64,000 bases of DNA from Fimicolochytrium jonesii (lineage: Eukaryota): NCBI RefSeq assembly GCF_025526975.1, contig NW_026515669.1, forward strand, positions 1,612,001 through 1,676,000. The letters are read 5' to 3'. The notes beneath the pieces were generated by a model. That model did no database searches and was not told where the DNA came from. It worked only from the letters and a program-made list of their open reading frames with translations. Within the stretch, counting starts at the first letter, position 1; every line of letters starts with the position of its first letter. Below, in pieces: positions 31,749 through 56,892 of the stretch. Made by a program: the position numbers and the translations under genes.

Positions 31749-31792
31749 TGTCACAGTCCACCCATCTTATATAAGATGGGTGGACTGTGACA
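31749..31792. repeat. Perfect 44-bp terminal palindrome
   Basis: TGTCACAGTCCACCCATCTTAT|ATAAGATGGGTGGACTGTGACA. Confidence 0.97.
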
Positions 31793-31874
31793 GGTACCAT
31801 AGTCAGTATTGAGACTGGACTGACTATAAGTTCACTTTGATAGGAACCATAGTCCGTTACGGGTCTTGTTACCC

Positions 31875-32000
31875 TAATTGAAGACCGCATTAATTGAAGA
31901 CCACACTAATTGAAGACCGCATTAATTGAAGACCACACTAATTGAAGACCGCACTAATTGAAGAGCGCACTAATTGAAGACCGCATTAATTGAAGACCGC
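31875..32000. repeat. 16-bp tandem repeat TAATTGAAGACCRCAY x8 (x6 at 56673-56766)
   Basis: Direct count in both TIRs; the last unit is partial. Confidence 0.92.
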
Positions 32001-32700
32001 TCCACGCGTCTCCTGTGACTGCAAAAAGTTCAAGACCAATTTCCGACGCGGGTTTAACGCGTCTCCGATGCACAAGTCATTAAACTCTGCAAGTCAATCA
32101 CGTGACCGCCCATGTGACACTGCACGTGACATAATAGGCTCAACGAGTCACTTTCAGTCGCGCCTGTCGAACACACCGTCACTCCTTACGTCAGCCCTTT
32201 TCCACACAAGTCCGCCGTTGCCCATCCCTACGCAAGTGGATCCAACAAAGAACCAAGTGAGGTCCACCCAAATATCCTCTCACCTCTCCATACATCGAGT
32301 CAATAACGTCGCAAGTCGTAACTAACCCCTCCACAAGTTATCGAATAGGTGGAAAAGTGACTTTTCAAACCAATGATGAACAACCGGAAAAACTAACGCA
32401 TGTACCTCATCCCCATCACATCATCTTTACCCAGATTCATTCATTCTCTCATAGGGTTTCAAAAGTCACTTTTCCACTTACTCCATAAATTATCGTAACA
32501 AATAAGAAAAACCTTTATCAATCCCCTCCACTCATCGAAACAAGTGACTTTCCAAATCACAAAAGTCACTTGATACCCCCCAAAACTCACTTGACACAAC
32601 TCTTATCGATATCCTCAATGTTTATATAAACACCGATTCCGCCCCTTGTGCATCCCCCGTACATTCGCTACTTCTCTCATCAACACTTCATTCTCCTAAC

Positions 32701-33120
32701 ATGGCTCGTATCACCAAGTCCAAGGTCGCTAAACGTCCCACGTTCAAGTCAAAGAAGCCCGCTGAGCTTGTTCAGTACCACCTCAACAGCATTTCGCACC
32801 TTATTGTCAAACGCTATTACAACGACAAGACGGGAGTGTTTTATCTCGGCCCTGATAGGAACAAATTCAATTACGTGTCCCAGAAGACCAAGTATCACGT
32901 TGACGGCTTGCGTAAACTCATTAACTGCTGTGTCTTTGAAGCGAATCGACCCGAAGAGGAAACTTGTACTTGCAGGAATACGCGCAAGTGTCTTCTTGAA
33001 GCACTTGGTGACCTCGTTGAATTTGCGCAAAAGGCCACCGATGATGAACTTCAAGTGAAACTGCAGAACTGTCGCCAAATTGCCATGTCATGCATGGTTA
33101 CCAATAGACAAGTCGTTTGA
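32701..33120 (+). CDS. Viral hypothetical protein
   Basis: 139-aa ATG ORF downstream of a TATA-like motif, followed by an AT-rich AATAAA region. Confidence 0.6.
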   Translation: MARITKSKVAKRPTFKSKKPAELVQYHLNSISHLIVKRYYNDKTGVFYLGPDRNKFNYVSQKTKYHVDGLRKLINCCVFEANRPEEETCTCRNTRKCLLEALGDLVEFAQKATDDELQVKLQNCRQIAMSCMVTNRQVV

Positions 33121-33223: not shown

Positions 33224-33481
33224 TCATTCATCGTTTAAGATTTGTCGCGCCTTCGTCAGTGTCTCATAGATGTCTAGTAGGAGTTGCTCAATGATTTGCA
33301 GCTCTTTCTGCAAGTTATCATTCCATGAGAAGTTGGACTTCAGCCGTTGCAGCTCTTTCCACATGGCGTAGAATGCGTCTTCAAGTTGCTGTAGTTCTTT
33401 CATTCGACTTATAAGAAGCAAAGAACTAAAGTAATCTAAATGGTGAAAATTAGGACACTTGAGGGTATTACCATTATCCAA
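33224..33481 (-). CDS. Small coiled-coil viral protein (may start at MKELQQ)
   Basis: Leucine heptad pattern. Confidence 0.45.
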   Translation of the reverse strand: MDNGNTLKCPNFHHLDYFSSLLLISRMKELQQLEDAFYAMWKELQRLKSNFSWNDNLQKELQIIEQLLLDIYETLTKARQILNDE

Positions 33482-33769
33482 TTGCCATGTTCAGACAGAC
33501 GAGCCCTGTGTCGGTTGCTGGAAAGCGTCCGTGGCAAATCAAACCAGATGGTCTATGTGAAGCGTGACGAGACGAACAGTGAACTTTTCCGAACGATATA
33601 TGAAATTTGTACAAATAGAAAGCCAAAATTCAAAAAAGCGTTTCTCTTTGGGAATGGTTACCTCGGCCTCTGTTGGAGTAAAGACAGAGGCAGTCGCATT
33701 ATCGTGGGCAGTGATATAAACCGGCAACACAGCATCCTTGAAGTGATTTTTGGAGAACCGCCGACCTAG
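33440..33769 (+). CDS. Viral hypothetical protein
   Basis: 109-aa ORF abutting the stop of the fibre gene. Confidence 0.4.
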   Translation: MVKIRTLEGITIIQLPCSDRRALCRLLESVRGKSNQMVYVKRDETNSELFRTIYEICTNRKPKFKKAFLFGNGYLGLCWSKDRGSRIIVGSDINRQHSILEVIFGEPPT

Positions 33770-36700
33770 TAGCACTGTGTCCAAAAATTGAGGTATGAAT
33801 TAGACAACGTTATAGATGTTGGTATGACAATTCGTGCGCTCAATTGAGTATTCGTCGAAGAGAACAGCAACGGCACTTGGAAACTGAACGGGTACCTAGT
33901 ATTATACGTATTTATATCACAGTAGTATGACACTCCTCTACTAGCCACTACAGTAGAAGATTGGTCCAATATCTGAACGGTAATCGTAACGCGTGAATTA
34001 TTCGAATTCATATATCCCATAAAGGAAACATGGGCTACCACTCCGGACATCCCGACTTTCCAATTTATGGGAGAAAAACCTCCTGTATACCCATTTCCAT
34101 TTGTTAACAACGCATCTACAACACCGTCTTTGATGCAAACTGCAGATTGAATGATTTGTGAAGCATAGATGTTCGTACTACAAGTCAAATCATTCTTTAC
34201 CAAAGCTGTTGTATTACATGTCATGGAATTTACCGTTGCTGAACCACTTGATGAAACGGTTCCCGTAGTCAACGCACCGGAAACATCTATAGTGTTTGCA
34301 GAAGCGGTGACAAGGGTTGCTTTTGGAACAGCCTGATTGAACTGAATCTGGCGGATTGCACATCCTCCACTTGTGGTTTGATTGGCATATGCCCATGCGA
34401 TGCCCCATACTACATAAGGCGTGGTGTTTGCAAAACTAAATGAGTTTCCATCAGTGGTCCAAGTAGAACCAGGTATATTCAACGTTGCAATGGTTACCAT
34501 AGCGGACTCGGTAGTTCCGGCAATCACGGAGAACGTAGTAGGCATCGCCACGGCGTCCATCAGGTAGGCGGTGAGTTTGATTGAACTCATAGCAATGGCC
34601 GACGGGAGTCTCAATAAAGAGTAATGAAGACTTTGTGTTGTTCCATCGAGTCCTAGGTTTGCTGTCGAAGTGCTCGCGGTTGCCCACCGCAGTCTGGAAG
34701 CAATACTTGCATTACTATAACAATCGAAAACATGTCCCGTATATCCATCTACACCGTTTCCGTTTGCATACGTGTATTCGGAAGAACCAATAACTGAATA
34801 CCCGGACCATGATTGACCTGTTGCTGGCGTCTGTGGATATGGAACGAGAGTTGTGACAGAATTTAAGGCAGAAGTTTTCAAGTCCCCGGTCACATTAAGA
34901 TTCGACCCCACATATAGAGATTTCGCTACAGATGCGCCTCCATTCACTACAAGAGCGCCCGATGTATTAGAAGTTGCATCAGAAGTGTTCAAGACCGATA
35001 CAGTACCACTGTTGTTCAGATTTCCCCCAACATATACGTTTTTCGCCACAGAGGCGCCTCCAGACACTTGAAGAGCGCCTGATCCAACTCCTGTGCAATC
35101 GGTTGTGGTAAAGACAGATGCAATACCAGTATTTGTAAAAACTTTGAACCAAGTGGTATTTTCGGCCGAATTCCACACAGAAAAATCTCCTACCACCCGT
35201 AAATCGTCCCATACCCGTACATAAGGGTTAGAACTTTGATTCGGGTCTATGGAGAGAGGACCTGCTGAACCAGATGCAGAAATTATTGCTTGATTTCCGG
35301 TGAAATTCATGTTTCCTGAAACTGACAAACTGCCGATAGAACCGGTGGGAATAACAACCTTCCCCGTTCCATCCACTGTAAGACCTTGTGGTGCATTCCA
35401 TAATCCCAAACCCAACGTGTTTGTCGCAAGACCTGCTCCAGCATAATTGAAGTACAATCTGGCCATATTATTTGTTGCTGCTCCTACTCCAATTTGAAGT
35501 GTTGAGAAACTCCCCGCTGCCAAATTAGGTGTTCCGAGATGCGAAGATACAATAGGGCCACTCGAAGAAATAGTGGAGTATATGGTACCGTTGACGTTCA
35601 AATCTTTACCAATATTGACATTCCCTGCAATACCCGCTCCACCTCTCACCTGAAATGCACCTGAAGTGGTCGAAGTAGAATCTATGGTGGAAAGAATTTG
35701 TACACTGGGGAGGTTAGAGTTGATTATGAAATTGGCATTAGACCCGGAATAGAGAAAAAAGTTCCCAGCATTTGGAGCGGTCGTATTGACTCCTGCGTAA
35801 CCGAATGCTCCCACCGTTGTTCCTGTGTTGTTAACAAAACCGATCGAAGAAAACCCAGATGCTGAAAGACTCTGAAGTTTCAAAACATCTGTTGATGTCG
35901 AGTTTACTTGCAGTGTATGACTCCCAGTGGCCGATGAACCAGCAAATAGAGATTTTCCCACACCTAGACCTCCAGCAACTGTTAGAGCGCCAGTTGTTGT
36001 AGAAGAGGAGTCCGTTGTTGTATTGATTAGAACATTTCCATTTGTCAATATATCAAGGTTTGATACGCCGGGTCCGTTAGCGAATCGAAGGTTTGTCGGT
36101 GAATTATTGTACTGTGCCCGAATTACCATATCGCCAATAGCCGAATTTGAGGAAAAGTACCCTGCTGCTGAAACGTTGCCCGTTATGCTGCTTCCAAATG
36201 TGGGTGTGGACACCGAACCGTTGTACCAAAAGATACTTTGATTTGACCCGACAAAACTCGCATCACTTCCTACCGTCAATTTCTTGGCGATACCAACACC
36301 TCCGGCGACCTGTAAAGCCCCTGTTGTTATACCATTCGAATCAGTTGTCGAATTGATATTTAATGCGTTTGTTGCCACATTCACCGTTAACGCAAGATTT
36401 GCGGCAGTATTGTTGTATAAGCCGAAATTATTAGTTCCAAGGCCACTAGTTTGGCCTATATGCCACAAAGTCCAACCTCCACCGTTTGAGTTTATAAGAC
36501 CTACAGAAGGTCCATTTCCGGCTGTAGATTCTTTTATGATTCCATATCCACCGACGTATAATGATTTAGCGATACCAACGCCGCCTGCAACTTGGAGAGA
36601 ACCAGCATTTATAGCGTTGGAGTCAAGAGTAGAAGTAACTACAGTCGATGCAGCGTTATTTATATTCAAAGTCTGTCCTGTTGTGGTATTCAGGTTCGCT

Positions 36701-39700
36701 GTTGTTCCTCCTAGGAATACGGTGCCGCCAACCACCACACTTTTCCCCACACCAACTCCTCCAACAACTTGGAGCGCACCTGATGTGGTCGAGGTAGAAT
36801 CAGTCGTTCCGGCAATTTGAACATTGGATAAGTTCGCATTTCCACCAACATTCAGAGATGATAGAGTTCCAACGATTGTAATTTGAGGCTGAGCAGGATT
36901 TACGCTAAAGGCGTTTCCAGTTCGTGTCAATCCTGTTCCAGCACTAAGAAGCGTATCAACATAAATCTTATTTGTAAGATGATTTGCTAAGGTCGGTGCT
37001 GTTGAGACGACAGCGTTTCCTGACACCGTGACATCTCCAGCAATATTTGCTGTTCCACCGACGCTCAATGATGATAGGGTCCCAAGAGATGTTATACCTG
37101 TTTGACTAGCATTAACGCTGAAAACGTTTCCTGTTTTTGTCAATCCCGTTCCAGCAGTTGAGACTAAACCATCTACATAGGATTTCAAGGCGACAGTTCC
37201 GTCAATGTTGGCATATGGAAGGACAGTTGTTCCAACATCGTTTGCTAAATCTATAGAATTCTTCAATGCAATCGAGCCTAAACCCAAAGCCGTCCTAGAT
37301 GCTGATGGAGGCGTACTGATATAATTCGTTCCATCTCCTACAAGGAAATTGTTGAGAGTGGCGGTGCTCGAAGAAATAGCAGTCAATTTTCCATTTAGCG
37401 GTTGCGCTCCCGTTTGCGTTGTAGAAATCAATCCATCCACATATGATTTTGTCACAGCATGCGAAGCCGTGGTTGGAGTAGGTACGGTTATTGACCCTGT
37501 AAATGTGCTAGAACCAGAAACGGTGAGACCCGTCAAAGTCCCAACACTTGTAATTTGTGTTTGGACAGGATTGACACTTAAAGTCTGACCAGTTTTAGTC
37601 AAACCGGTTCCAGCAAGCACAATGTTCGGGTCAATACTTCCAACAGGAAGAATACCGGTGACATCTGCGCTTGCAAGATTGATAACGGATTTAGCAGCCA
37701 AACTGCCAAGCGAAGGCTTGTTTGTCAGTAAAGCCGAAGTGTAATCTATACTACTCAGTGCTGCAAGTGAACCAAGCGAAGGCTTGTTTGTAAGTAAAGC
37801 CGAAGTGTAATCGATACTGCTAAGTGCTGCAAGTGAGCCAAGAGTTGGCTTTCCAGTAATGTACGTCGAAGCATAGTCGATGCTATTCAGCGCAGCGAGA
37901 CTGCCAAGGACAGGTTTATTCACCAACGCCGAACTTGTGTAATCTAATGTATCAAGCAAACTTAAATTCTTCAAGGACAAGTTCGCACGAACATCTGCAG
38001 GACTATATTGAATGAAGTTGCCGCCGCTTGCGATAAGCATGTACGTGTTTGTCGGTGCTATATTTGCGAAGTTTGTCAGACGAGCATTAAGGGGTTGATA
38101 CGTCGTGGCTGCATTTGCTACGGTGAGGTAGTTGTTCAAAGTAGGACTGCTGATGCTTCCCGCTGTTAAAGTATTTGTAACATTCAATGTACCAAGCGTT
38201 CCTACTGTTGTTATGGCTCCCGAGTTGAAGCTAATCGAATTACTCGTGTCTCTAGAGAAGACAGGTCCGATAAAGGTCAGCTTCTTCTCGTAGACAGAGA
38301 GGTCTGGAGTGCCGGTTAACCTTGTGTATGGAATGGTATCTGTCTTTGCAACTTTGCTGTCGATAGAGGTTTGCAGTAAGGCATTAGTGTCTCCTATAAC
38401 ATTCATGTATGCCGGTTGTATAATCTCGCTATCGTATTGCCGCAAAAGAGACAGCGATATCGCAGTCTGAGGAACCTCATTTTTGATTCCTTTGAACGAA
38501 CAGGGTGGAATGTCATCAAGCAGCAAACGTGTTACATCACACGATGTGTCATCAGTCTTGGGGAAAGTCGCTATAATCACTTGACTTCCGTTTGGGTCTG
38601 GCAATGGGTTGCCGTTGGAGTCTACTACATTGTTGCCATTCGCATCTTTCTGGTTTTTTCTCTCTCGCCCTGACACAGCGATGAATCCCCCTAAGATGCC
38701 GGCTGCTGCTGCCGGTCCTCCGAGCAGTCCTCCTACGGCACCGATAGCAGATGTGGCGAATGGAGCGCCTGCAGCGGGTCCGATGAGCCCCACCGCTCCT
38801 CCTAAGATTGAGGAAAGCGGTCCGGTCACAGATACAGCAGGGTTTGTCCCAGATGCAGTGAGGGGGTCACTCTCCCCAGATGGGTTCGAGTCCTCATTTT
38901 TCTCTTCAGGGTCATCGCTCTCTTTACGGTTTTTGTAGGGCTGTATGGAGCTGATATTGAACCCGGTTTCTTCCGAACCGACAACAAGAATGCCCGACCC
39001 GCCCGTAATCACTAACGGCTGTTTAGCGATGTTGAACTCCTTATCCCCTCCCGTCACAATGATAGGCAAAGCCGCAGTGATAACAGTCGGGGTTTCGGGT
39101 TCAGGCTGATAAGTGCAACTAATGGTAGACCCAGATATAGAGATGTTGTTCCCCGCCGTATAAGCTCCGGCGATGTTGTTTCCAGTTACGGAGACACCGT
39201 TGCTGCCCGTATAAGCCCCTTTAACAGAGTTGCCCGTGACCGTTACAGTTGAATCACCAGCCTGCAAATCTAGCTGCAAGTCGTTCTCTACTCGCTTCAC
39301 GCCGTTCGATGCGGTCAGCTGCTCCCCGAATGTATTGTTACCATCGAATGTAATGGCCCCGCTTACAGATGGAGCGAGTTTGACCTGGTTTTGATTTTCA
39401 ATCTTCAAACCGCCGTTGACTGGTTGAAACGTCAAACCTATCGCCAATTTGTCGTTCACTACTCGTATCCCTTTGTTATCCACAATTGCGGAAGGGTTGA
39501 CTCCAAGATTTTGTGAAGAGTCAATTGCTAAGCTCGCATCCGTTCTCACATCGATAGTACGTCTTCCGTTACTCACGCTAGAGATGTCTATACCTGAACC
39601 TGCTTGATAAAGCTGCTCCACATACGCAGTCGACGGTACTTGATTGTTATCAGGGTCGAAGTCAGTGTTCACATACATATGAGGGGCATGCAATTCATTC

Positions 39701-40767
39701 AGAGTCTCATTGTAATAAAATGAAGAATCTCCATTGAATCCGCTCAAAGCAGAGTAGTAAGGAATCTGCCCCATACCTTTGGAACGTATAGCAAGCTTGT
39801 TGCCAGACTGTTGGAAATCGTCTGAAGTTTTCAAGCGAATGACGGTCGTATCAATATCAGTGTCATCTCCTAGAAAATCTGCAATGCTATCGAAGCCTTC
39901 TTGGAGCACATCTTCGAGCAAGATACTTGAACCTTTATCATTGGAAATGGCTCCACGTCCCACGATTACAGTGTCAACATCAGTCTGTAAGGCCCCGCTA
40001 TCATCGAGTTTCAATCCCTTTCCGGTATCGAGGAGAATGTGACCGGTTGTATCGTCTTTCCTCAGAGGTCTGTCCACAACAAGTTTTTGATCGATCAAAC
40101 TCTCTACATTTTCGCTGGCCACCGAGAGTCCTTCGCTAGTAACTGTCAAAGTACTGTCATGCTGCAGCCCTAAGCCACCCACGTCACGCGTAACTGGAAA
40201 TTCAACATCTTCCCTTACCACACTCAGCTTATCACTCTTCACTGTAAGTGACGAGTCCGTGAGAAGTTTCAACCCATTAGAATCCCTTGCAAGAGGACTA
40301 TTGATATCCTCTTTTTCAGGGAAGACGACGCTAAGCAAACCATCATCGGTCTGTTTAAGGGAATCATCGTGGAAAAGCGTGATACCATCTTGTGACACGC
40401 CCAAAGGCAAATCCGTGATAACAGCCGCTGTCCTTGAAGCGGCATCATATGTCAGTGGGAACTCATAGTTGTTTTCCTTTGTTGCAAGCTTCCCGTTCTT
40501 CACTTTCAAGTCCGTTTCATCTATCTTCAAGTCAATCGTTGCGATTCCTTTGTCGGTCTTTACCTCAAGCGGCTCTGTTGCTTTCACATCATTAACAAGG
40601 AAATCTCCATTTTCATTCGCAACTCGATTGAACCTTGCTGAATCGAATCCGCTTATCGCAACACTGTCTCCATTCGCTCGAAGGCTGTTTGTCACGAGAG
40701 GGGAGACTAAGTTAGTTCTCTCTAAAGTCCTAATACCCGAACTAGTTCGGCTATTGAGATTACTCAT
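33766..40767 (-). CDS. Giant fibre/tail-fibre-like virion protein
   Basis: 2333 aa, G/S/T/N-rich; shaft-like PL..D..L.V repeats; xKSYVD motifs; AGTGLT(K/R)TG x3; TxD..S..GALQVxGG x7; 22-aa tandem repeats. Confidence 0.8.
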   Translation of the reverse strand: MSNLNSRTSSGIRTLERTNLVSPLVTNSLRANGDSVAISGFDSARFNRVANENGDFLVNDVKATEPLEVKTDKGIATIDLKIDETDLKVKNGKLATKENNYEFPLTYDAASRTAAVITDLPLGVSQDGITLFHDDSLKQTDDGLLSVVFPEKEDINSPLARDSNGLKLLTDSSLTVKSDKLSVVREDVEFPVTRDVGGLGLQHDSTLTVTSEGLSVASENVESLIDQKLVVDRPLRKDDTTGHILLDTGKGLKLDDSGALQTDVDTVIVGRGAISNDKGSSILLEDVLQEGFDSIADFLGDDTDIDTTVIRLKTSDDFQQSGNKLAIRSKGMGQIPYYSALSGFNGDSSFYYNETLNELHAPHMYVNTDFDPDNNQVPSTAYVEQLYQAGSGIDISSVSNGRRTIDVRTDASLAIDSSQNLGVNPSAIVDNKGIRVVNDKLAIGLTFQPVNGGLKIENQNQVKLAPSVSGAITFDGNNTFGEQLTASNGVKRVENDLQLDLQAGDSTVTVTGNSVKGAYTGSNGVSVTGNNIAGAYTAGNNISISGSTISCTYQPEPETPTVITAALPIIVTGGDKEFNIAKQPLVITGGSGILVVGSEETGFNISSIQPYKNRKESDDPEEKNEDSNPSGESDPLTASGTNPAVSVTGPLSSILGGAVGLIGPAAGAPFATSAIGAVGGLLGGPAAAAGILGGFIAVSGRERKNQKDANGNNVVDSNGNPLPDPNGSQVIIATFPKTDDTSCDVTRLLLDDIPPCSFKGIKNEVPQTAISLSLLRQYDSEIIQPAYMNVIGDTNALLQTSIDSKVAKTDTIPYTRLTGTPDLSVYEKKLTFIGPVFSRDTSNSISFNSGAITTVGTLGTLNVTNTLTAGSISSPTLNNYLTVANAATTYQPLNARLTNFANIAPTNTYMLIASGGNFIQYSPADVRANLSLKNLSLLDTLDYTSSALVNKPVLGSLAALNSIDYASTYITGKPTLGSLAALSSIDYTSALLTNKPSLGSLAALSSIDYTSALLTNKPSLGSLAAKSVINLASADVTGILPVGSIDPNIVLAGTGLTKTGQTLSVNPVQTQITSVGTLTGLTVSGSSTFTGSITVPTPTTASHAVTKSYVDGLISTTQTGAQPLNGKLTAISSSTATLNNFLVGDGTNYISTPPSASRTALGLGSIALKNSIDLANDVGTTVLPYANIDGTVALKSYVDGLVSTAGTGLTKTGNVFSVNASQTGITSLGTLSSLSVGGTANIAGDVTVSGNAVVSTAPTLANHLTNKIYVDTLLSAGTGLTRTGNAFSVNPAQPQITIVGTLSSLNVGGNANLSNVQIAGTTDSTSTTSGALQVVGGVGVGKSVVVGGTVFLGGTTANLNTTTGQTLNINNAASTVVTSTLDSNAINAGSLQVAGGVGIAKSLYVGGYGIIKESTAGNGPSVGLINSNGGGWTLWHIGQTSGLGTNNFGLYNNTAANLALTVNVATNALNINSTTDSNGITTGALQVAGGVGIAKKLTVGSDASFVGSNQSIFWYNGSVSTPTFGSSITGNVSAAGYFSSNSAIGDMVIRAQYNNSPTNLRFANGPGVSNLDILTNGNVLINTTTDSSSTTTGALTVAGGLGVGKSLFAGSSATGSHTLQVNSTSTDVLKLQSLSASGFSSIGFVNNTGTTVGAFGYAGVNTTAPNAGNFFLYSGSNANFIINSNLPSVQILSTIDSTSTTSGAFQVRGGAGIAGNVNIGKDLNVNGTIYSTISSSGPIVSSHLGTPNLAAGSFSTLQIGVGAATNNMARLYFNYAGAGLATNTLGLGLWNAPQGLTVDGTGKVVIPTGSIGSLSVSGNMNFTGNQAIISASGSAGPLSIDPNQSSNPYVRVWDDLRVVGDFSVWNSAENTTWFKVFTNTGIASVFTTTDCTGVGSGALQVSGGASVAKNVYVGGNLNNSGTVSVLNTSDATSNTSGALVVNGGASVAKSLYVGSNLNVTGDLKTSALNSVTTLVPYPQTPATGQSWSGYSVIGSSEYTYANGNGVDGYTGHVFDCYSNASIASRLRWATASTSTANLGLDGTTQSLHYSLLRLPSAIAMSSIKLTAYLMDAVAMPTTFSVIAGTTESAMVTIATLNIPGSTWTTDGNSFSFANTTPYVVWGIAWAYANQTTSGGCAIRQIQFNQAVPKATLVTASANTIDVSGALTTGTVSSSGSATVNSMTCNTTALVKNDLTCSTNIYASQIIQSAVCIKDGVVDALLTNGNGYTGGFSPINWKVGMSGVVAHVSFMGYMNSNNSRVTITVQILDQSSTVVASRGVSYYCDINTYNTRYPFSFQVPLLFSSTNTQLSARIVIPTSITLSNSYLNFWTQCY

Positions 40768-40794
40768 TTTACTAGATTAGAAAGAAAATTTAAC

Positions 40795-47095: not shown

Positions 47096-48385
47096 ATGGC
47101 TCCTCCTTTAACTAGAGCACAGGAAGAGAAGCTAAAGACTCTTTTTTATTCGGAAAAAAACTTTTTCGGTAGAGACCGACTCTATTTTCTTTTGCAGCAA
47201 GACCCGCGAAATGATATATCACGACGACAGGTGATGAACTGGCTTGCTAAACAACCCATAGCACAAAAGTTTCGAAGACCTGTGAGAGCCACAGGTGTGC
47301 GAGCAATCGTATCAACGGCTCTCGGTTCATTTCAATGTGATACGATGGACATGTCTGCAGACAGCTACAGAGGATTCGGTGCAATCTTCTCCATGATTGA
47401 CACGTTTTCCAGACGTTTGTATGCACGAGCAATCACAGGAAAGACTGCCGCAGAATGTACGCGCGCCTTGAAGGAAATTTTAGATGAGAACCCACACATG
47501 GCGTTCCACCGCGTAGTCTCAGATAACGGTGGAGAATTTCAGAATGTATTCGATGAGTACCTGCAGGAACTTGAGGTACCGCATAACGTCACGCGTCCCC
47601 ATCAGCCTTGGTCAAATGGAATAATCGAGCGGAGTAATGCCTCGTTAAGAAAACAACTGTCGATTTATATGGAAACCACAGGCAACAAAGATTGGCCGGC
47701 TGCTTTGCCTGATTTAGTTAAACGGTTGAACTCGACCTTTAATGCAACAACGAAACATTCGCCCAATGAGTTAGAAGAGACGTCTCCGGACAGCGAAGAA
47801 CACACTAAGGCTGGATCAAACATAATGAAGCGAGCTGGAAAATCTGTTAATGTCCGTGGTGCAACGACTCTACAAGTTGGGGATACGGTTAGGAAAGTGT
47901 TTCAATATTCGGGCACAAATATTCAAAAACCATCAAGGACGGGATACTTTGCGCCAGAAAAGTTCGAGATTGTAGCAGTTGTCCCATCCCCTTATGCAAA
48001 CCAGCTTCCATCATACAAGCTGAAGAACAGCGCGGGTGTTGTGGAAAAGGGTTTGTTCGCTCGAAGTCAACTCTTGTTGGTGCCCAGTGAAGGTATCCGG
48101 ATCGACCCGCCTCGACCTGTTGAGAATGTAGGCGAGCCACCCGTGGAGGAACCGGTAGAGGAACCGGTTGCGCCAAGACGTTCGGGAAGACTTAACCCCG
48201 AGAGGGAGTATGAAGTCGAATACATTCGAGACAAGAGAACGCGCAGAGTAGGTAGACGAACATTCATTGAATATCTAGTAAAATACAAAGACTATCCTAT
48301 CGAACAAAGTACATGGGAAAAGGTCTCTAATATCAATGCGCCTAATCTTATTCGGGAGTTTGAGAGTCAGAGGAATCGACGCTAA
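47096..48385 (+). CDS. Retroviral-type (rve) DDE integrase with C-terminal chromodomain
   Basis: FQCDTMD, SDNGGEF, NGIIERSN; EYEVEYI..EYLVKYKDY..STWE. Confidence 0.92.
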   Translation: MAPPLTRAQEEKLKTLFYSEKNFFGRDRLYFLLQQDPRNDISRRQVMNWLAKQPIAQKFRRPVRATGVRAIVSTALGSFQCDTMDMSADSYRGFGAIFSMIDTFSRRLYARAITGKTAAECTRALKEILDENPHMAFHRVVSDNGGEFQNVFDEYLQELEVPHNVTRPHQPWSNGIIERSNASLRKQLSIYMETTGNKDWPAALPDLVKRLNSTFNATTKHSPNELEETSPDSEEHTKAGSNIMKRAGKSVNVRGATTLQVGDTVRKVFQYSGTNIQKPSRTGYFAPEKFEIVAVVPSPYANQLPSYKLKNSAGVVEKGLFARSQLLLVPSEGIRIDPPRPVENVGEPPVEEPVEEPVAPRRSGRLNPEREYEVEYIRDKRTRRVGRRTFIEYLVKYKDYPIEQSTWEKVSNINAPNLIREFESQRNRR

Positions 48386-49457
48386 GTTTACGCTTTTTGT
48401 TACTGTTGTAACGATTATACAAGGAACTCTCTTCCTCGTTGTGATGATTGTTAAGAGCTAACAGCCTGCTAATAGGGTCTTGCAGCCCGTTCCTACGCAG
48501 GTGAGTAATCTGCGTTTTCCTGCAACTTCGAACACCGTGCTTCTGTCCACACGCAGCTTCAAATGACTTTTGTATATGGGTATTGAAATTGTTTGGTGTG
48601 AATGGATTTCCCTTTGAATCGATAAACACATGAGCGCCTTCCGGGCGAAACCGCTTGATGAATCGAATGAGAACGTCAGAGACAAACGCAGGGTCGATGA
48701 CATCCTGAAACGACTCCGGTGCGTCTACAAAATGTTGCAGAAATGACTGAACCTCGTCCTGTCTGTGTTTCTTGTTTACAGATTGTCTGTCAAACTTCCT
48801 ATCATTCCATAGAATGGTAGGCCTTCCGGTAGCAGCAAAGATAAAGATGTTATCCTTTTTCCAATCGATTCCTTCGCGGTCGAATATCTTGAGATTTCCA
48901 AAGTTGCCTCGGACGTTGTAGAAACAAGCGACAAACAATCCGATGATGCCGTCTTGCAAAAGTTCAATCTGATGCTTGCTGGGGTGAGGAAGGTCGAATA
49001 TGTAGAACAGGCTATCGCAGTATTTGCGCATCTCGTCAACAACTCCCTTCCAATTAGGAATCAATTCATCGTCGGATAATGTCTCTCCATTAGAACGGGC
49101 TGTGTTGTAAGGCTGTTTCAATCGACGTTGCTCATCAGCGAGTTTCTTCCTGACCTCCTCCCATTGGTCGAATGAAATACCGAGGGGTTCGTGACCGCAA
49201 TTTCTGAAGATACGATGAACTTTCCCAATGAAATCCGCCATACTAGAGTCAGCAATTTTCCCGTCCTTTAAACGTGCAGATTGCTTTGACTGAGTGATGA
49301 TAGCTTTAATGTCGTGCAGGTTGGATAGGGATTCCAAGGAATCGAAGATGCCGCGCTTCTGGAATTCGGTCACATCTTTCAAATCGCCTGTATAAGATTT
49401 GGTATCCTTCGTAAGGAACTCGCCGAGGTTGGCCGTTTTCAGATAGAATTCAGCCAT
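48348..49457 (-). CDS. Tyrosine recombinase-family protein (possible telomere resolvase)
   Basis: VRGNFGNL (R), NDRKF (K), VFIDSKGNP, GVRSCRK (R), NHHN..SLYNRY (H..Y) in YR order. Confidence 0.65.
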   Translation of the reverse strand: MAEFYLKTANLGEFLTKDTKSYTGDLKDVTEFQKRGIFDSLESLSNLHDIKAIITQSKQSARLKDGKIADSSMADFIGKVHRIFRNCGHEPLGISFDQWEEVRKKLADEQRRLKQPYNTARSNGETLSDDELIPNWKGVVDEMRKYCDSLFYIFDLPHPSKHQIELLQDGIIGLFVACFYNVRGNFGNLKIFDREGIDWKKDNIFIFAATGRPTILWNDRKFDRQSVNKKHRQDEVQSFLQHFVDAPESFQDVIDPAFVSDVLIRFIKRFRPEGAHVFIDSKGNPFTPNNFNTHIQKSFEAACGQKHGVRSCRKTQITHLRRNGLQDPISRLLALNNHHNEEESSLYNRYNSNKKRKLSVDSSDSQTPE

Positions 49458-49553: not shown

Positions 49554-52500
49554 TCATATGTGTTTCAAGATATGACAGATGGTCTCCACTGACATCGCGT
49601 TGTCTAAGAGACTTAACCTTGCGGCACTAGAGATTCCGTGCGTGTAATTATCAGGAAACCCCATTGCACGCTCTTTGTCTATGCACGTCAGTCGCTTATC
49701 GTTCGGTGCTTGCCGTTTATGAAACGGCGCAGGCTGAATTCGGAAATTCGCCCAATACCATCTCTTCCTAGACAAACCGTTGAAATCCGCATCGTCCAAC
49801 ATTATCGGCTTCACTCCTAAAGCCTCGCTTATCGTTGCGGTCGGCTCCGTGTTTGCAAACAAAAAGTAGCGAGGGTGACATGCCCTCAAAATCTTATCGA
49901 ATCCATTCACATTTCCCGCGCCGATGAGAAATTCGAATACAGGCAGAACATTGCATTCGAGTTTCTCAATATCTCCATAGTTCGTTTGCCGAATGTGGTG
50001 TATCTCGTAAATCTTTACAGCTCGCGGGTTTAACTCTGAATAACCGACGCAGTGGGCGTTCTCAAACACCCGATTCATAGCAAGGTCTGCTCCCCCGATT
50101 CCGGCAGAAGCGGAAAAGTAGCGCAAGGGTGACTTCTTCTCCACGTCGAGCAACGACGGCGTGCAAGCGAAGCTGTTCACTCCGGGAATGAATCCATGCG
50201 TTTGGAAAGCCGCGACGAACTTCTTCGCAAGCGGAAATCCAGACTCGCTGTCAAGATACGCGACTGTTAATTTCCCCTTCCGCAGGTGACACAGCATCGC
50301 GACGGAGTACAGCTCATCGGTGCATTCTGACACGATTCCGACAGCGCGTATCACTTCACCGCTTTCCAAATCGTTTTTCGCTTTGTCTAAGAAATCTTCT
50401 CCTTCGATACAAGTCACTTCATTCTCTGCGGCAAAGTCCGTTATCGCTTTGTGTATGCGGTCTTGCTTCTTAACCGGAGACTTCTTCGGAGGAGGAGGTG
50501 TATCTTCGTCCTCTTCTTCTTCTTCGCCTGACTCGACATAGCTTTGCCTTGCGCGCTTTCGCAAATTGTGCGTATGTTCGCGCACGTCTTTGGGAAGAAT
50601 CGTGTTCCCTTCAAAGACATCGCAGAACGCTTTTTGTATATGCAGATTCGCCTCTCGTGCAACGTATATAATAACCCTCGGATTAGGGTCATCACTTATC
50701 GCTTTCTTGTGCGGATTACGCTCTAACGCCGCTCTCGACAGGTGATTGTTTGATCGATGGAATTGCGCATATTGGTCGCATCGCCGTATGAGCGGGAAGC
50801 TCCAGTTTCGCCTGCCATCCATAGGCAATAAGAATATCGCATGGTCACATTCGCCTTTATCAATCATCTCCATCACCCGTGCGATGAACTTTGGTGTAGG
50901 GTTCTCCGACTTCTTCATGTGCTTTGACTGTTCGTCAGACAAAGCCCTAGCTGGCGGATTGCAGAGAATCACACTCGGTCGCCCTGTCCATTCGCTTGGT
51001 TCCCGTTCAGCCTCATCATCGTCTGCGGGAATGCACCAGCGTTCTAATCCAAAGGCGTCCACAAACGAACCGTCGGGCTGTACCCCGTAGTAGTATTTGC
51101 AATTGATTGTCGCGCAAGGATTACTGCAAACGTCGAGGTCTATCGAGTCATGAAAGCACTTGACAAATTGGTCTATCTTGTCACAGATTTCCGGAGCTGC
51201 GTTGTACTCGTTCTCCCCTAGCTTTGTCCTAGACCGTTTGCAGTGAATCCATTTCGACCTTTCTACCGAGCTCTCTTCTTCCTCTGACTCGGATTTTTCG
51301 GACTCTGCCTCCTCCGACATAACCTTTTTGCGGACGTCTTTTGTCAGATACGTCTTTGGTAGCGTGCCGAAAATCTCGCAGAAGGAACGCTCAATATCCA
51401 TGTGCTTTTCTCTTGACAGATAAATCAAGCAGCGTGGGTTCGGGTCATCGACGACAGGTTTCGCTTGCGGTGAGCGTTCTAAGGCCGCCTTCGAGAGATG
51501 ATTGTTGAAGCGGTTAAAAATTAAAAGTTGGTCACATCTTTCAACGAGAGGCGGGCACCATGACCTTCGCAAATCCATCGGCACAAGGAGAAGCAGATGG
51601 TCACATTCTTCGTCATCCAGCATCTGCACAAGCCTATCAAGAAACTTCGGAGTTGGGAACTCATTTTCCATACGGCTAGCCTGCTCTTCATTGAGCGGCC
51701 TCGCAGGCGGGTTACACACGATAACGCTTGCTTTGCCTGTCCATTCCCGGGGGTGCAATGCCGCTTCGTCTTCGTCGGCTGGGATACACCAACGAGGCAA
51801 ATCGAATGCATCGATGAACGTCCCGTGGGGTTGAACACCAAAGTAATGCTTACAAACGAGCTCCGAACTGGGATTCGAGCATACATCCAAGTCGATGCTA
51901 TCGTGGAATGTTTTCACAAAGTCGTCTAACAACTTGCAAATGATTGGTGGCGTATTGTATTCGTTTTCACCTAACCGCCTTCGTGCGGAAAGTGAATGCC
52001 TCCACTTCCCGATATCGGTGACCGGTTTGCCTGACGCCAGTCTCGCTTGATCGATCAACTCTTCTTCGTCTTCGTCCATGGGAAACTCATCCTCATCAAC
52101 TTCAGGCAAAGACGCTCCTGTAGGCGAGGCTTCCGAAGTCAAATCAATGGCATTTGAGTCGACCTCGGGTTCCTTGAAAGGTGCACTGAGCCTGCATGCC
52201 ACTACATTCTGTCGTCCTTCGTAGAATTCCACATTTCTGTCCCAAATCGTCTTCAGAGGCAAACGCAATTTCTTATGCAGCTTCAGCAAAGCGAGACAGA
52301 GTGCGGCATTGCAAGGCAGCTCATCGGTTGGGACGCCTTCTTTCTTCAACCGCAAGAGAACGTCTCCGCAGTTTGAGATATTGTAGAACGTCCTGCGCGT
52401 CACGTTGTGAAACTTCTTGACATATTCCTCGAGCGCTGGCGCCTCGTTCTTGTAGAGCCGGTGCTCCACAATGGTATTAACGGCGATACATGTCGTAAGG

Positions 52501-52580
52501 AAATCCTCACTCTCTTCGGGGTTGATGTGCAGGTATCGCTGGTTGATTTTGCTCTCCTGTATCTGTAGCGGTGAATCCAT
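49554..52580 (-). CDS. Multidomain DNA methyltransferase-like protein: two phage-Dam-like domains plus a degenerate C5-cytosine MTase
   Basis: Duplicated NEYN.P..IDLDVCSNP..CNPPAR; C-terminal SAGIGG, SELN, YGDI, RKRWYW, ERAMGFPDNYT. Confidence 0.78.
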   Translation of the reverse strand: MDSPLQIQESKINQRYLHINPEESEDFLTTCIAVNTIVEHRLYKNEAPALEEYVKKFHNVTRRTFYNISNCGDVLLRLKKEGVPTDELPCNAALCLALLKLHKKLRLPLKTIWDRNVEFYEGRQNVVACRLSAPFKEPEVDSNAIDLTSEASPTGASLPEVDEDEFPMDEDEEELIDQARLASGKPVTDIGKWRHSLSARRRLGENEYNTPPIICKLLDDFVKTFHDSIDLDVCSNPSSELVCKHYFGVQPHGTFIDAFDLPRWCIPADEDEAALHPREWTGKASVIVCNPPARPLNEEQASRMENEFPTPKFLDRLVQMLDDEECDHLLLLVPMDLRRSWCPPLVERCDQLLIFNRFNNHLSKAALERSPQAKPVVDDPNPRCLIYLSREKHMDIERSFCEIFGTLPKTYLTKDVRKKVMSEEAESEKSESEEEESSVERSKWIHCKRSRTKLGENEYNAAPEICDKIDQFVKCFHDSIDLDVCSNPCATINCKYYYGVQPDGSFVDAFGLERWCIPADDDEAEREPSEWTGRPSVILCNPPARALSDEQSKHMKKSENPTPKFIARVMEMIDKGECDHAIFLLPMDGRRNWSFPLIRRCDQYAQFHRSNNHLSRAALERNPHKKAISDDPNPRVIIYVAREANLHIQKAFCDVFEGNTILPKDVREHTHNLRKRARQSYVESGEEEEEDEDTPPPPKKSPVKKQDRIHKAITDFAAENEVTCIEGEDFLDKAKNDLESGEVIRAVGIVSECTDELYSVAMLCHLRKGKLTVAYLDSESGFPLAKKFVAAFQTHGFIPGVNSFACTPSLLDVEKKSPLRYFSASAGIGGADLAMNRVFENAHCVGYSELNPRAVKIYEIHHIRQTNYGDIEKLECNVLPVFEFLIGAGNVNGFDKILRACHPRYFLFANTEPTATISEALGVKPIMLDDADFNGLSRKRWYWANFRIQPAPFHKRQAPNDKRLTCIDKERAMGFPDNYTHGISSAARLSLLDNAMSVETICHILKHI

Positions 52581-52868: not shown

Positions 52869-53144
52869 TCAGCCGGCGTTCGACTTGAAGCTTGATGAAG
52901 ATTGAGGCCGTCTTTTCCACTGTTTGTCTGCGATTGCGCAAGCCATTGCGTAAGCCTGCTTACTTGATGTCACAGTCATCTCCACTCCGCCTTTGCCACG
53001 GTAGGTGAGGGTTCGTTGATCGAACTTGCCCAAAACCTCGTCCATTACCTCCTTTTTAAAGACCTCCTGCTCAACCTCTTCCCCGCTGATACCATGTGAC
53101 TTATAGAACTCTTCCATTCGTTTTCTATAAGTCAAACATTCCAA
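52869..53144 (-). CDS. Viral hypothetical protein
   Basis: 91-aa ORF directly after the HTH ORF. Confidence 0.5.
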   Translation of the reverse strand: MECLTYRKRMEEFYKSHGISGEEVEQEVFKKEVMDEVLGKFDQRTLTYRGKGGVEMTVTSSKQAYAMACAIADKQWKRRPQSSSSFKSNAG

Positions 53145-53150
53145 TTTTGT

Positions 53151-53375: not shown

Positions 53376-53490
53376 TATACAAACATATGTTTAAACGCCG
53401 CCAAAACGCACACATCATAATGAGGCAAGATGGATGCGTTTAGAATGTGATTTAAACATCTGTTGCTGAAGAGTAGACAACGATAACAAC

Positions 53491-56022
53491 GTGAGTATGA
53501 CCGACATTGATGATAAGTTTGACCTTGAGCCTTACAAGAAGCTAAACGACAAAACGGTTTTGTGGAAGGTCGAATTCATGAACGAGAATAGACTCAAAGT
53601 TCTGCTTCAATCTCCATTCTTAGACGCGAAGCTCAAGAAAGGCTTGCAATCGATGGTCAAATACAACCGCGTTGGTTTGAACCTTTACCGAACGGAGTAC
53701 GCTTATTCTTCCCACTCGGTCGACGACAGTGGGCGTCTCTATGCTCGAAGCAGGTCGCTTCAAAACTTGCCGGCAAATGTTAAAAAAAATCCACCTTTCC
53801 GCCAGTACCTTGCAAGTGGAGAATACCATGACATCGATCAAGCAAACTCCATGCCTACCATTTGGGCGCATCTCTGTGCTTCACATTCGATTGTTTGTCC
53901 CAATCTAGATACTTACATCAATCAGCGTCCGACGATTCTCCAAGAAAGAGGCATCGACAAGCAGGTGGTTATGGAGTACCTTACCTACGAACCTCGAATG
54001 ATAGCAGACCCCTTCTTCCGACAGATTCACGATACACTTTACCGAACCTTGGTGCCGCTTCTAAAGGAGAAGTACAACCACATCTGGGAGAAAGTCATGA
54101 AATCTCGCGAGGATAAAGTTAAACGCAATCGAGGCGGTAGTTTCCTCTGTCAAGTCGCCCACACTATTGAAACTAAAATCAGCCTCGCTGTTGACAAATT
54201 CTTCACGAATCGAGGTTGGTCTGTCGATGTGCATGTTTTTGACGGAGTGATGATTCGTAAACGACCTGATACGAGCATGACCCCCGAACTGCTAGAGGAA
54301 TGTAACAAATACGTCTCCGACCAAACCGGAATCGCTGGTGTGAAGCTCGTTGAAAAAAGCCTCGATTTCGAAGCTCATCCTCAATTGCCGTTGCTCGCAA
54401 TCCCCCAAGAAGATGTAAATCCCGTTAAACCAGCAGATGGCAATGCAGTAGATTTTCGTGACCTTAAGTGCATCAAGGGTTGGGAGAACTTCGACTTCAG
54501 GCGTATTTTTAGCCCGACTCACAAGAATAGCGCGGAGTGGTACGTAGAACAACGCCACGCGTCAATCATGAAACATTCGAGCGGGCTGTTGTTTATACTC
54601 GGCAAAGACAATATTTGGAGGAAATTTGACAGCGTGAAAGCGAGTGACCTCAATTTGCAAATCGCTGATAACTTGATTAGCAGCTTCGAGAAATTGATTG
54701 ACGATGCTACCAACGAACTTCAACATGGTAATGTCGACATATTGAAGGCCAAGCTCAAAACGTTTCGTCCCGAAGTCGAAGGCACCGCATATTCTGGAAG
54801 TGTCGCGTATAATGTCGAGCGACTTTGCAAAACCGACGACAAATGCATTGACCTGTTCCTCTCCAAACCTTACTTGCTGCCGTTCAACGATGGGGTGTAC
54901 GACTTGGTCAAGGGAGAATTCCGACCTATTGAACCCACAGATTACATTCTCTTCACTTGCGGATATAACTTCCCAAAAACGTCAAACAAAGAAATCCGAA
55001 AGAAGATTACCGACTTCTACACCTCCATCTTCCAGACTGAGGAGCTCACCGAATATCGACTCGCTACAGTGGCGCGTTGCCTCTACGGAGAAATCGTCGA
55101 AGAAATCTTTGTGATTCAGAAAGGCAAGGGACGAAACGGGAAAGGAGCTGAAACAACCCTTATTCAAAATGTTTTTGGTAACTTGTTCTACTGCCTCGAT
55201 AAGCGCAACTTCACTCGTGACCAGCAGGACGTGGACCGACCGAATTCACAAGTGTACAATCTCTTCGGTAAACGATATCTGACAACCAGTGAGACCAATA
55301 AGAACGACCGCTTCCTCTCTGAGGTATTCAAAGGATTCTCGGGAAACGATTATATCAGTGTGCGCACGCTTAACGGCAAACCTATCACTTTCCGCGTCAC
55401 AGGTTTGCTGAATGTTCAAACCAACGAGGACCCTGTTTTTGATAAAGTAGACGTGGCGTTGGGAAAGCGCACCCGTATGCAGGAGTACCCCTTCACCTTC
55501 ACAAACATTGAGCTAATGGAGACAGACGATACCGAACTTGATGCCATGGAAATTGATGAAGACGAGAGCGAATATAAGGCAATCGAGAAACAGGGTGACG
55601 AGAACTTGAAACGCGACTTCAAGTCTGAGGCGTACCGCGATGAAGGAATGCTTCTGCTGATTTCGTTGTTTAGAGAGATGTTCATTCAAAGCGATGGGTC
55701 CCTCAGCATGAAGATTGACGTCCCCGATGAGGTGCTCGCATTTACAAAGCAGAATCTTGCTACAAGCCTTGCTGCTGCAAAATGGCTCAAGTTCCATTAC
55801 AAGATTACCGGCGATTCTACAGATGTTGTGAGGAAGAAAGAACTGTATTGCGAATACGCACAATCCGTGTTTGACGTGAAGAAGAGGATTGGCAAAACGC
55901 AATTCTACAAGGAATTAGAAGGGATTCAAATCAAAACCGGCATCCGTAATGGTTATCAGGTGTATGTAGGCTTGAAGAGAACGGCAAGGTCGAATGAAGG
56001 TGACGAGTTCTTTGATGTTTAA
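53491..56022 (+). CDS. TVpol (PolA-derived primase-polymerase) fused to a D5-like SF3 helicase
   Basis: SGRLYA..SLQNLP, DIDQANS, VFDGVM; LLPFNDGVYDL (D5_N), GKGRNGKG Walker A, TSE, QTN. Confidence 0.85.
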   Translation: MSMTDIDDKFDLEPYKKLNDKTVLWKVEFMNENRLKVLLQSPFLDAKLKKGLQSMVKYNRVGLNLYRTEYAYSSHSVDDSGRLYARSRSLQNLPANVKKNPPFRQYLASGEYHDIDQANSMPTIWAHLCASHSIVCPNLDTYINQRPTILQERGIDKQVVMEYLTYEPRMIADPFFRQIHDTLYRTLVPLLKEKYNHIWEKVMKSREDKVKRNRGGSFLCQVAHTIETKISLAVDKFFTNRGWSVDVHVFDGVMIRKRPDTSMTPELLEECNKYVSDQTGIAGVKLVEKSLDFEAHPQLPLLAIPQEDVNPVKPADGNAVDFRDLKCIKGWENFDFRRIFSPTHKNSAEWYVEQRHASIMKHSSGLLFILGKDNIWRKFDSVKASDLNLQIADNLISSFEKLIDDATNELQHGNVDILKAKLKTFRPEVEGTAYSGSVAYNVERLCKTDDKCIDLFLSKPYLLPFNDGVYDLVKGEFRPIEPTDYILFTCGYNFPKTSNKEIRKKITDFYTSIFQTEELTEYRLATVARCLYGEIVEEIFVIQKGKGRNGKGAETTLIQNVFGNLFYCLDKRNFTRDQQDVDRPNSQVYNLFGKRYLTTSETNKNDRFLSEVFKGFSGNDYISVRTLNGKPITFRVTGLLNVQTNEDPVFDKVDVALGKRTRMQEYPFTFTNIELMETDDTELDAMEIDEDESEYKAIEKQGDENLKRDFKSEAYRDEGMLLLISLFREMFIQSDGSLSMKIDVPDEVLAFTKQNLATSLAAAKWLKFHYKITGDSTDVVRKKELYCEYAQSVFDVKKRIGKTQFYKELEGIQIKTGIRNGYQVYVGLKRTARSNEGDEFFDV

Positions 56023-56059
56023 GAAGCAACAGTATTTAATTGAGCATAACTGAGCATAT

Positions 56060-56892
56060 GATATCGATAAGAGTTGTGTCAAGTGAGTTTTGGGGGGTAT
56101 CAAGTGACTTTTGTGATTTGGAAAGTCACTTGTTTCGATGAGTGGAGGGGATTGATAAAGGTTTTTCTTATTTGTTACGATAATTTATGGAGTAAGTGGA
56201 AAAGTGACTTTTGAAACCCTATGAGAGAATGAATGAATCTGGGTAAAGATGATGTGATGGGGATGAGGTACATGCGTTAGTTTTTCCGGTTGTTCATCAT
56301 TGGTTTGAAAAGTCACTTTTCCACCTATTCGATAACTTGTGGAGGGGTTAGTTACGACTTGCGACGTTATTGACTCGATGTATGGAGAGGTGAGAGGATA
56401 TTTGGGTGGACCTCACTTGGTTCTTTGTTGGATCCACTTGCGTAGGGATGGGCAACGGCGGACTTGTGTGGAAAAGGGCTGACGTAAGGAGTGACGGTGT
56501 GTTCGACAGGCGCGACTGAAAGTGACTCGTTGAGCCTATTATGTCACGTGCAGTGTCACATGGGCGGTCACGTGATTGACTTGCAGAGTTTAATGACTTG
56601 TGCATCGGAGACGCGTTAAACCCGCGTCGGAAATTGGTCTTGAACTTTTTGCAGTCACAGGAGACGCGTGGAGCGGTCTTCAATTAATGCGGTCTTCAAT
56701 TAGTGCGCTCTTCAATTAGTGCGGTCTTCAATTAGTGTGGTCTTCAATTAATGCGGTCTTCAATTAGGGTAACAAGACCCGTAACGGACTATGGTTCCTA
56801 TCAAAGTGAACTTATAGTCAGTCCAGTCTCAATACTGACTATGGTACCTGTCACAGTCCACCCATCTTATATAAGATGGGTGGACTGTGACA
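56060..56892 (-). repeat. Right terminal inverted repeat (833 bp) ending in the same 44-bp palindrome (56849-56892)
   Basis: Reverse complement of the left TIR. Confidence 0.95.

Follow-up and report, generated by a model that had tools for sequence, protein, structure and literature searches.

The element and its insertion site

We analyzed a 64,000-nucleotide stretch of the Fimicolochytrium jonesii genome (NCBI RefSeq assembly GCF_025526975.1, contig NW_026515669.1, positions 1,612,001 to 1,676,000 of the forward strand), which we refer to as the window and number from its first letter. Positions 31749-56892 of the window form a single element of 25,144 bp that starts with TGT and ends with ACA, giving it TG...CA ends. 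Its GC content is 46%, compared with 55% in the flanks. The features that define the element's boundaries and insertion site are as follows.

29802..31748, + strand: host Ty3/gypsy chromovirus copy, left flank; gag, protease and the start of the reverse transcriptase; an in-frame stop precedes the insertion site (Pfam)
31744..31748, + strand: left target-site duplication (TSD), CATGG; one copy at homologous empty sites
31749..31792, no strand: left terminal palindrome, perfect over 44 bp, with TG...CA ends; predicted to form a hairpin whose stem is approximately 20 bp
31749..32613, + strand: left terminal inverted repeat (TIR), 865 bp
31874..32000, + strand: 16-bp tandem array in the left TIR, 7.9 copies (5.9 in the right TIR)
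56060..56892, - strand: right TIR, 833 bp
56849..56892, no strand: right perfect 44-bp terminal palindrome
56893..56897, + strand: right TSD, CATGG
56893..59552, + strand: same Ty3/gypsy copy, right flank; reverse transcriptase and integrase-chromodomain part, in several frames (Pfam)

The sequences on either side of the element are the two halves of one Ty3/gypsy chromovirus copy, as judged from Pfam matches to gag, protease, reverse transcriptase, integrase and chromo domains. The window contains two uninterrupted copies of this host retrotransposon, which match the element's 150-bp flanks at 93-98% and hold a single CATGG each (18971-18975 and 23586-23590). The single CATGG at both empty sites proves the 5-bp duplication, and thus a true insertion. 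The interrupted copy is itself decayed, with an in-frame stop just ahead of the insertion and the remainder spread over several frames. This decay probably predates the element, whose open reading frames (ORFs) are intact. Decayed copies of this chromovirus, in tandem and nested, lie on the minus strand at 15391-25231 and 28379-29577, approximately 4.62 kb apart and 91-98% alike, making this region a retrotransposon cluster.

Sixteen annotated ORFs account for 91% of the DNA between the TIRs, leaving 2,077 bp outside annotated ORFs. Alignment of the left and right TIRs reveals no mismatches over 833 columns, which places their divergence below approximately 0.4% (rule of three on 833 columns). 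The only difference between them is two units of the 16-bp tandem repeat, the core of which matches 8 times in the left TIR and 6 times in the right. The identity of the TIRs and the integrity of the ORFs, against the broken state of the surrounding retrotransposon copy, support a likely recent arrival in the genome, as the original prediction had proposed. Its length and its TIRs of 833 and 865 bp fall within the description of Polinton-like viruses (PLVs), which have genomes of 15-30 kb, often with TIRs. With the exact TSD, the TIRs, the capsid and ATPase genes and the unbroken ORFs all verified, we conclude that the element is almost certainly a complete, intact endogenous PLV in a fungal genome, in agreement with the original prediction. 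Three of ten window proteins that we looked up are identical to publicly annotated proteins; the capsid protein as read here has no identical entry.

Capsid and packaging genes

Four genes of the element encode proteins that we assign to virion structure or genome packaging.

33766..40767, - strand: predicted fibre/adhesin, 2333 aa, with an adenovirus-fibre-like N-terminal segment and a long repeat-rich shaft
42995..44218, - strand: major capsid protein (MCP), double jelly-roll, 407 aa (AlphaFold model and fold search)
44789..45538, - strand: probable minor capsid protein (penton), 249 aa (look-alike evidence)
45584..46321, + strand: A32-like packaging ATPase, 245 aa, Walker A at residues 35-42 and Walker B at 113-117 (Pfam Pox_A32, E 1.3e-6, above cut-off)

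A word-seeded search with the MCP returned 14 matches at 48-81% identity. All nine of those that carry an organism name come from chytrids, namely Geranomyces, Gaertneriomyces, Powellomyces and Phlyctochytrium arcticum. KAJ3131156 and KAI9008010 are two of the chytrid relatives. The first three genera presumably belong to the Spizellomycetales, and NCBI places P. arcticum in the Chytridiales. Taken with the recombinase described below, for which all four named relatives are also from chytrid genomes, these matches bear out, indirectly, the chytrid-like host that had been predicted from the sequence. According to their annotation, several of the chytrid MCP relatives are truncated or represent fusions (224-313 or 631 aa). 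A tree of the MCP and its relatives (15 rows, none left out, no outgroup) places the query among chytrid and environmental relatives, though within no strongly supported clade.

The AlphaFold model of the MCP, built from 13 sequences (the query and 12 of its 14 relatives; pLDDT 76.5, pTM 0.76), has two beta-barrels and matches the capsid proteins of PBCV-1, iridovirus, EhV, mavirus, Sputnik and PRD1 (best E 1.1e-15, TMq 0.63). The double jelly-roll, whose absence had been named beforehand as refuting the prediction, is thus present. PBCV-1-type capsids (E 1e-15, TMq 0.63) rank above those of mavirus and Sputnik (E 2e-11 to 2e-10, TMq 0.49-0.59).

An integrated PLV of Spizellomyces punctatus and a 27-member "S. 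punctatus group" have been described (Bellas and Sommaruga 2021, PMC7805220). No S. punctatus protein is among the 14 MCP matches of the word-seeded search, SPPG_00925 of MCP cluster PC_0050 included, suggesting that the element described here probably represents a capsid lineage separate from the S. punctatus group. No related loci were confirmed in viral contigs for the MCP, the ATPase or the integrase.

The 249-aa ORF probably encodes the penton: its Atlas look-alikes are viral proteins of approximately 250 aa (score 0.98), and it resembles, by eye, the possible minor capsid protein rows in the supplement of PMC7805220. It has no Pfam or PDB sequence match. For the 2333-aa protein, an N-terminal piece matches Pfam Av_adeno_fibre (E 1.1e-6, above cut-off), the whole protein has no Pfam match, and the fibre N-terminus has no PDB sequence match. 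A 66-bp tandem repeat of approximately 2.7 copies (22-aa units) lies inside this gene at 37706-37885. Thus, of the full morphogenesis module that the original prediction described, the MCP fold and the Pox_A32 ATPase are confirmed, and the penton stands on weaker look-alike evidence. Given the MCP fold, we consider it probable that the MCP, the probable penton, the A32 ATPase and the fibre together build a protease-free icosahedral particle.

Integration genes, replication genes and terminal palindromes

Three further genes bear on how the element would be inserted and replicated, and a fourth encodes a methyltransferase-like protein.

47096..48385, + strand: rve integrase with a C-terminal chromodomain, 429 aa; D82, D143 and E178 (D-35-E spacing) (Pfam rve and chromo)
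48348..49457, - strand: tyrosine recombinase with a Xer/Cre-like fold, 369 aa; R183, K221, R313, H339 and Y347
49554..52580, - strand: methyltransferase-like protein, 1008 aa (Pfam DNA_methylase)
53497..56022, + strand: probable TV-Pol (PolA-like) domain fused to a D5/SF3 helicase, 841 aa (Pfam D5_N; motifs)

The two types of recombinase that had been predicted are both confirmed, the rve integrase by Pfam and the tyrosine recombinase by its fold and catalytic pentad. The integrase has an intact DDE triad. TG...CA ends and a 5-bp TSD are typical products of rve integrases. Given these ends, the TSD and the established behaviour of DDE integrases, we assign the insertion to the rve integrase with high confidence; its substrate would have been a linear genome, open at its palindromic ends.

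The 369-aa recombinase has no significant Pfam match. Of its 29 relatives, seven were looked up, and the four named ones are chytrid proteins, including S. punctatus SPPG_07594; in having an S. punctatus relative, the recombinase differs from the MCP. A model built from 28 sequences (pLDDT 88) matches XerH with a Z score of 15.0 (root mean square deviation (rmsd) 4.2, 287 aligned residues) and also XerA, Tn1549 Int and Cre (Z 13.2). The CB and CAT folds are present, as are the catalytic residues of the R-K-(H)-R-H-Y set, of which the His-II position is not conserved in the family. The pentad is strongly conserved in ungapped rows (R183 in 27/28, K221 in 26/26, R313 in 25/25, H339 in 24/24 and Y347 in 23/23). 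The telomere resolvases TelA (Z 7.9, rmsd 8.0, 269 aligned residues) and TelK (Z 7.2) also appear among the fold matches. We considered a protelomerase identity for the recombinase; these scores, far below those of XerH and Cre, weaken it.

Residues 1-300 of the 841-aa protein contain, as motifs, four elements of TV-Pol: a beta-hairpin arginine (R80), D112/D114, the R151xxxK155 of the fingers and the palm aspartate D249. The motif inspection followed the description of these elements by Iyer et al. (PMC2579912). The arginine of the RxxxK motif is not kept in the two closest relatives. HHalign comparison with seven PolA domains yields the expected register (GRL...LQN...D; 32% over 50 columns), and the Atlas structural neighbours of this region include N-terminal domains of Preplasmiviricota helicase fusions (TM 0.72-0.84). 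The region has no match in PDB sequences, NCBIfam or Pfam, and a search of phage records gave one match at E 0.5. Since the motifs are present but the profile score is not significant, we regard the TV-Pol identity of this domain as likely, not proven. The TVpol-SF3 helicase of the original prediction is therefore upheld by Pfam for its D5 helicase and only in its motifs for TV-Pol. Catalytic residues are retained in the integrase, the recombinase, the ATPase and the helicase.

In line with the original prediction, neither a family B DNA polymerase of the protein-primed type (pPolB) nor a protease was recognized by a Pfam family match among the 15 ORFs of the element that were scanned. Furthermore, all three ORFs longer than 500 aa are otherwise assigned and only 2,077 bp lie outside ORFs, so that no ORF is left for pPolB.

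The terminal palindromes, which are absent from the original prediction, are the most mechanistically informative feature of the element. Away from the two ends, palindromes in the window reach 18 bp, and those in 30 mononucleotide shuffles reach 20 bp at most. When the left end is folded as single-stranded DNA, it forms a 20-bp stem (z -5.6 for a 282-nt region), and a second short stem-loop and then the 16-bp tandem array lie inward of the palindrome. The array is a candidate origin or set of protein-binding iterons. The palindrome has no exact matches in metagenome contigs or in viral contigs. In Halocafeteria, terminal palindromes beside TSDs are reported to show a preferential link to replicases other than pPolB and to certain rve integrases, and hairpin priming has been proposed (10.64898/2026.07.28.741278). 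By analogy, the 44-bp palindromes likely act as a hairpin primer in place of protein priming. After release of the element, the 3' palindrome would snap back and prime strand-displacement synthesis by the PolA-like domain while the SF3 helicase displaces the other strand, so that hairpin priming would replace the terminal protein of pPolB elements. We put forward this sequence of steps tentatively, as slightly less probable than its negation. The tyrosine recombinase may resolve replicated end junctions or may mediate a second kind of integration or excision, either excision by way of the two palindromes, which form direct repeats in addition to inverted ones, or insertion into a helper giant virus. 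Insertion of the latter kind has been proposed for EMALEs. For the mechanism as a whole, a PLV inserted by its own integrase and replicated by hairpin priming, our judgement leans modestly in favour.

Several observations weigh against this mechanism or against the assignments on which it draws. The TV-Pol profile score of 18.5 was beaten by 4 of 40 column-shuffled controls, and the nearest Pfam-bearing Atlas cluster for the domain, DNA_pol_A (0.81, 44% of members), is under the 0.9 bar. A TV-Pol is predicted to have primase activity of its own, which may leave no need for a hairpin primer; either way, primase priming alone gives no account of the palindromes. The recombinase is nearer to Xer and Cre than to telomere resolvases, which weakens a role in telomere resolution. 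The penton is assigned from look-alikes and a by-eye comparison. Only a single copy of the element was seen, so the identity of its TIRs could partly reflect assembly consensus. Finally, the TATA-like boxes described below suit transcription by host Pol II, and so are as compatible with an autonomous cycle in the nucleus as with one triggered by a helper.

Since every perfect palindrome repeats itself in direct orientation too, a Xer/Cre-like recombinase could join both ends. The palindromes might therefore be symmetric tyrosine-recombinase sites at which the ends are joined and a circle is excised, to be replicated by the TV-Pol primase-helicase, leaving one 44-bp palindrome between the TSDs. 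The fold of the recombinase, closest to XerH, XerA and Cre, and its intact catalytic residues are consistent with this explanation, as is the fact that circular intermediates are the usual products of recombinases (PMC4642659, 10.64898/2026.10.13.758929). However, the 22-bp arms stop exactly at the integrase-type CA that adjoins the TSD, and no solo palindrome is found within the 64-kb window, which is a small sample. Moreover, in Halocafeteria, PLVs are reported not to combine rve integrase and recombinase, although palindromes do occur in PLV subtype 4 (10.64898/2026.07.28.741278). We consider this explanation unlikely.

A virion genome with covalently closed hairpin telomeres would also account for the ends. 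The recombinase would then be a telomere resolvase, and integration would proceed from a nick at the CA on the stem, with host gap repair completing the palindrome. By sequence logic, such a process would yield exactly a TSD, a perfect 44-bp palindrome and a TIR, and TelA and TelK are indeed among the fold matches of the recombinase, although at approximately half the Z of Xer and Cre (7.9 and 7.2 versus 15.0 and 13.2). We know of no rve integrase that uses a hairpin-stem substrate. Dimer resolution by a recombinase at hairpin ends has been suggested for elements associated with entomopoxviruses (PMC11296320). On balance, closed hairpin telomeres seem to us very unlikely. The same low probability attaches to a more elaborate proposal, in which the element is an inducible small fungal double-stranded DNA virus, possibly a parasite of Mycodnaviridae, whose Xer-like recombinase resolves hairpin ends and whose retroviral-type integrase acts on the hairpin stem; such a scheme is not shown for any PLV in the literature examined.

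Related elements, reactivation and remaining features

Hairpin priming aside, the element can be compared with several known systems. Like the S. punctatus PLV, it is a TIR-bearing integrated PLV in a chytrid with a module of MCP, minor capsid protein (probable here) and ATPase (PMC7805220). The S. punctatus PLV is listed with "TIR 154 bp (pPolB)", whereas the element described here has TIRs of 833-865 bp and no pPolB was found in it; chitinase, present in 52% of the S. punctatus group, has no match in it either (PMC7805220). In a tree of PLVs in which switching between pPolB and TV-Pol is frequent, ATPases encoded in the presumed viral regions of many chytrid genomes occupy two places among the Aquintoviruses (10.64898/2026.06.19.733378). 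The element may be one of these chytrid A32 ATPase lineages, for which the section of that preprint devoted to them gives no genome anatomy.

In its integration and replication genes, the element resembles the mid-GC EMALEs of Cafeteria burkhardae, which lack pPolB and have a long primase/helicase ORF, an rve integrase together with a tyrosine recombinase, TIRs and a short TSD. EMALEs, however, are mavirus-like virophages with a protease and a stramenopile host, whereas the host here is a fungus and no protease was recognized (Hackl et al. 2021, PMC8547959). The capsid model, too, sets the element apart from EMALEs, as it scores higher against PBCV-1-type capsids than against those of mavirus and Sputnik. 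Terminal palindromes beside TSDs are shared with elements of Halocafeteria seosinensis, namely virophages and PLVs of subtype 4 (those of subtype 5 are 52 nt long), but that host is a protist, and there an rve integrase and a recombinase are described together in virophages only, not in PLVs (10.64898/2026.07.28.741278). A minimal protease-free morphogenesis module, a TVpol-helicase (probable here), a tyrosine recombinase and methyltransferases are also found in PgVV/YSL-type PLVs, nearly all of which are without an rve integrase and have algal or unknown hosts (Yutin et al. 2015, PMC4642659). With classical Maverick/Polinton elements, the element shares an rve integrase with a TSD but not the protein-primed family B polymerase, which was not found here. 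DDE integrases have been reported to correlate with PolB and recombinases with PolA/AEP (10.64898/2026.10.13.758929), making rve with PolA-SF3 a less usual pairing.

Taken together, these comparisons describe a fungal PLV whose ends are palindromic and whose integration and replication module is EMALE-like. Each of these components has a precedent, so the surprise is moderate. Fungal PLVs, pPolB-less PLVs with PolA-SF3 fusions and pairs of rve integrase and recombinase have all been published, and the novelty implied by the original prediction was overstated. A PLV with palindromic ends, an rve integrase and a recombinase in a fungus is not described in the literature examined; supplements of the preprints may list the element.

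To our knowledge, fungi were long thought to be without double-stranded DNA viruses. Chytrid PLVs have so far been mostly single genes and one pPolB-type element, and the palindrome model of end replication has so far been proposed only. The largest survey of integrated PLVs left out fungi (PMC10120064). With an intact, exactly delimited copy available on a long contig in a public assembly, it becomes possible to test the inducibility of a small double-stranded DNA mycovirus, the existence of virophage-like parasites of fungal giant viruses, and end replication in pPolB-less linear PLVs. The element is thus a good candidate for inducing such a virus from a fungus and a test case for hairpin priming.

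The element has no RNA polymerase gene, so its reactivation would need transcription by the host or a helper. As the trigger we favour, at about even odds, a Mycodnaviridae-like giant virus of fungi, by analogy with EMALEs and with the PLVs of Tetraselmis. Integrated PLVs of Tetraselmis are induced by a giant virus (10.1101/2025.10.09.676808), and zoosporic fungi have been shown to harbour persistent giant viruses (PMC13533422). Four of 15 ORFs (the 139-aa ORF, the recombinase, the methyltransferase and the 82-aa ORF) have a TATA-like box 56-78 nt upstream. None of the capsid-module genes has such a box, and five have a T-rich motif 20-38 nt upstream. The pattern suggests two expression classes, with both motifs picked after looking at the sequence.

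Alternatively, the element may be a dead-end insertion that looks intact through youth or silencing and forms no particles in its host. Such an explanation draws on the fact that no activity has been observed directly, on the truncated or fused annotation of several chytrid MCP relatives, and on the absence of the catalytic Pro-Cys from the C5-methyltransferase-like domain of the 1008-aa protein, which also has two tandem N-type methyltransferase-like repeats (132/225 identical). In opposition to it, the core ORFs are unbroken, the integrase, recombinase, ATPase and helicase keep their catalytic residues, and the TIRs are identical. We regard a dead end as an improbable outcome.

Two additional sequence motifs were noted. 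ATGTTTA is found 6 times in the element's 2,077 bp of intergenic DNA and 3 times in its 21,369 bp of coding sequence, and is missing from the host flanks. Its sites at 32618, 49522, 52628 and 53365-53459 are upstream of the 139-aa ORF, the recombinase, the methyltransferase and the TV-Pol-helicase, and it is a candidate early promoter, chosen post hoc. A perfect palindrome of 16-18 bp with a T-run, a GATC core and an A-run occurs twice, with one copy upstream of the 105-aa ORF (46448-46463) and the other upstream of the integrase (47044-47061), and is a possible operator or terminator.

The remaining ORFs of the element are as follows.

32701..33120, + strand: 139-aa Cys-rich ORF, TATA-like box upstream
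33440..33769, + strand: 109-aa ORF
40795..41091, - strand: 98-aa basic ORF, possible virion protein
41142..42620, + strand: 492-aa ORF, no cysteine
44259..44741, - strand: 160-aa charged ORF
46571..46888, + strand: 105-aa ORF
52869..53117, - strand: 82-aa ORF

Cysteine is absent from the 492-, 160-, 105- and 98-aa ORFs and present in the 139- and 109-aa ORFs; lacking cysteine, the 492-aa ORF does not encode a cysteine protease. Four shorter reading frames were also seen, all on the minus strand: a 59-aa coiled-coil ORF (33224-33403), a very basic 48-aa peptide after the MCP that is a possible core protein (42816-42962), a Lys-rich 53-aa peptide (46318-46479) and a 67-aa helix-turn-helix-like ORF (53151-53354; MarR E 0.004, below cut-off).

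Elsewhere in the window, a cluster of degenerate purine-rich repeats of 44-93 bp lies at 14397-14870. Two overlapping ORFs of 502 and 349 aa lie on the plus strand in a high-GC stretch at 7360-9914, and the H-x-D and H-x-T spacing of the 349-aa ORF is, by eye, suggestive of a 2OG-Fe(II) TET/JBP-like dioxygenase. At 21-4751 on the plus strand, a 1576-aa ORF combines, also by eye, an exonuclease III/AP-endonuclease-like domain with reverse transcriptase, RNase H and integrase, and appears to be a long terminal repeat (LTR)-type pol with an unusual endonuclease domain.

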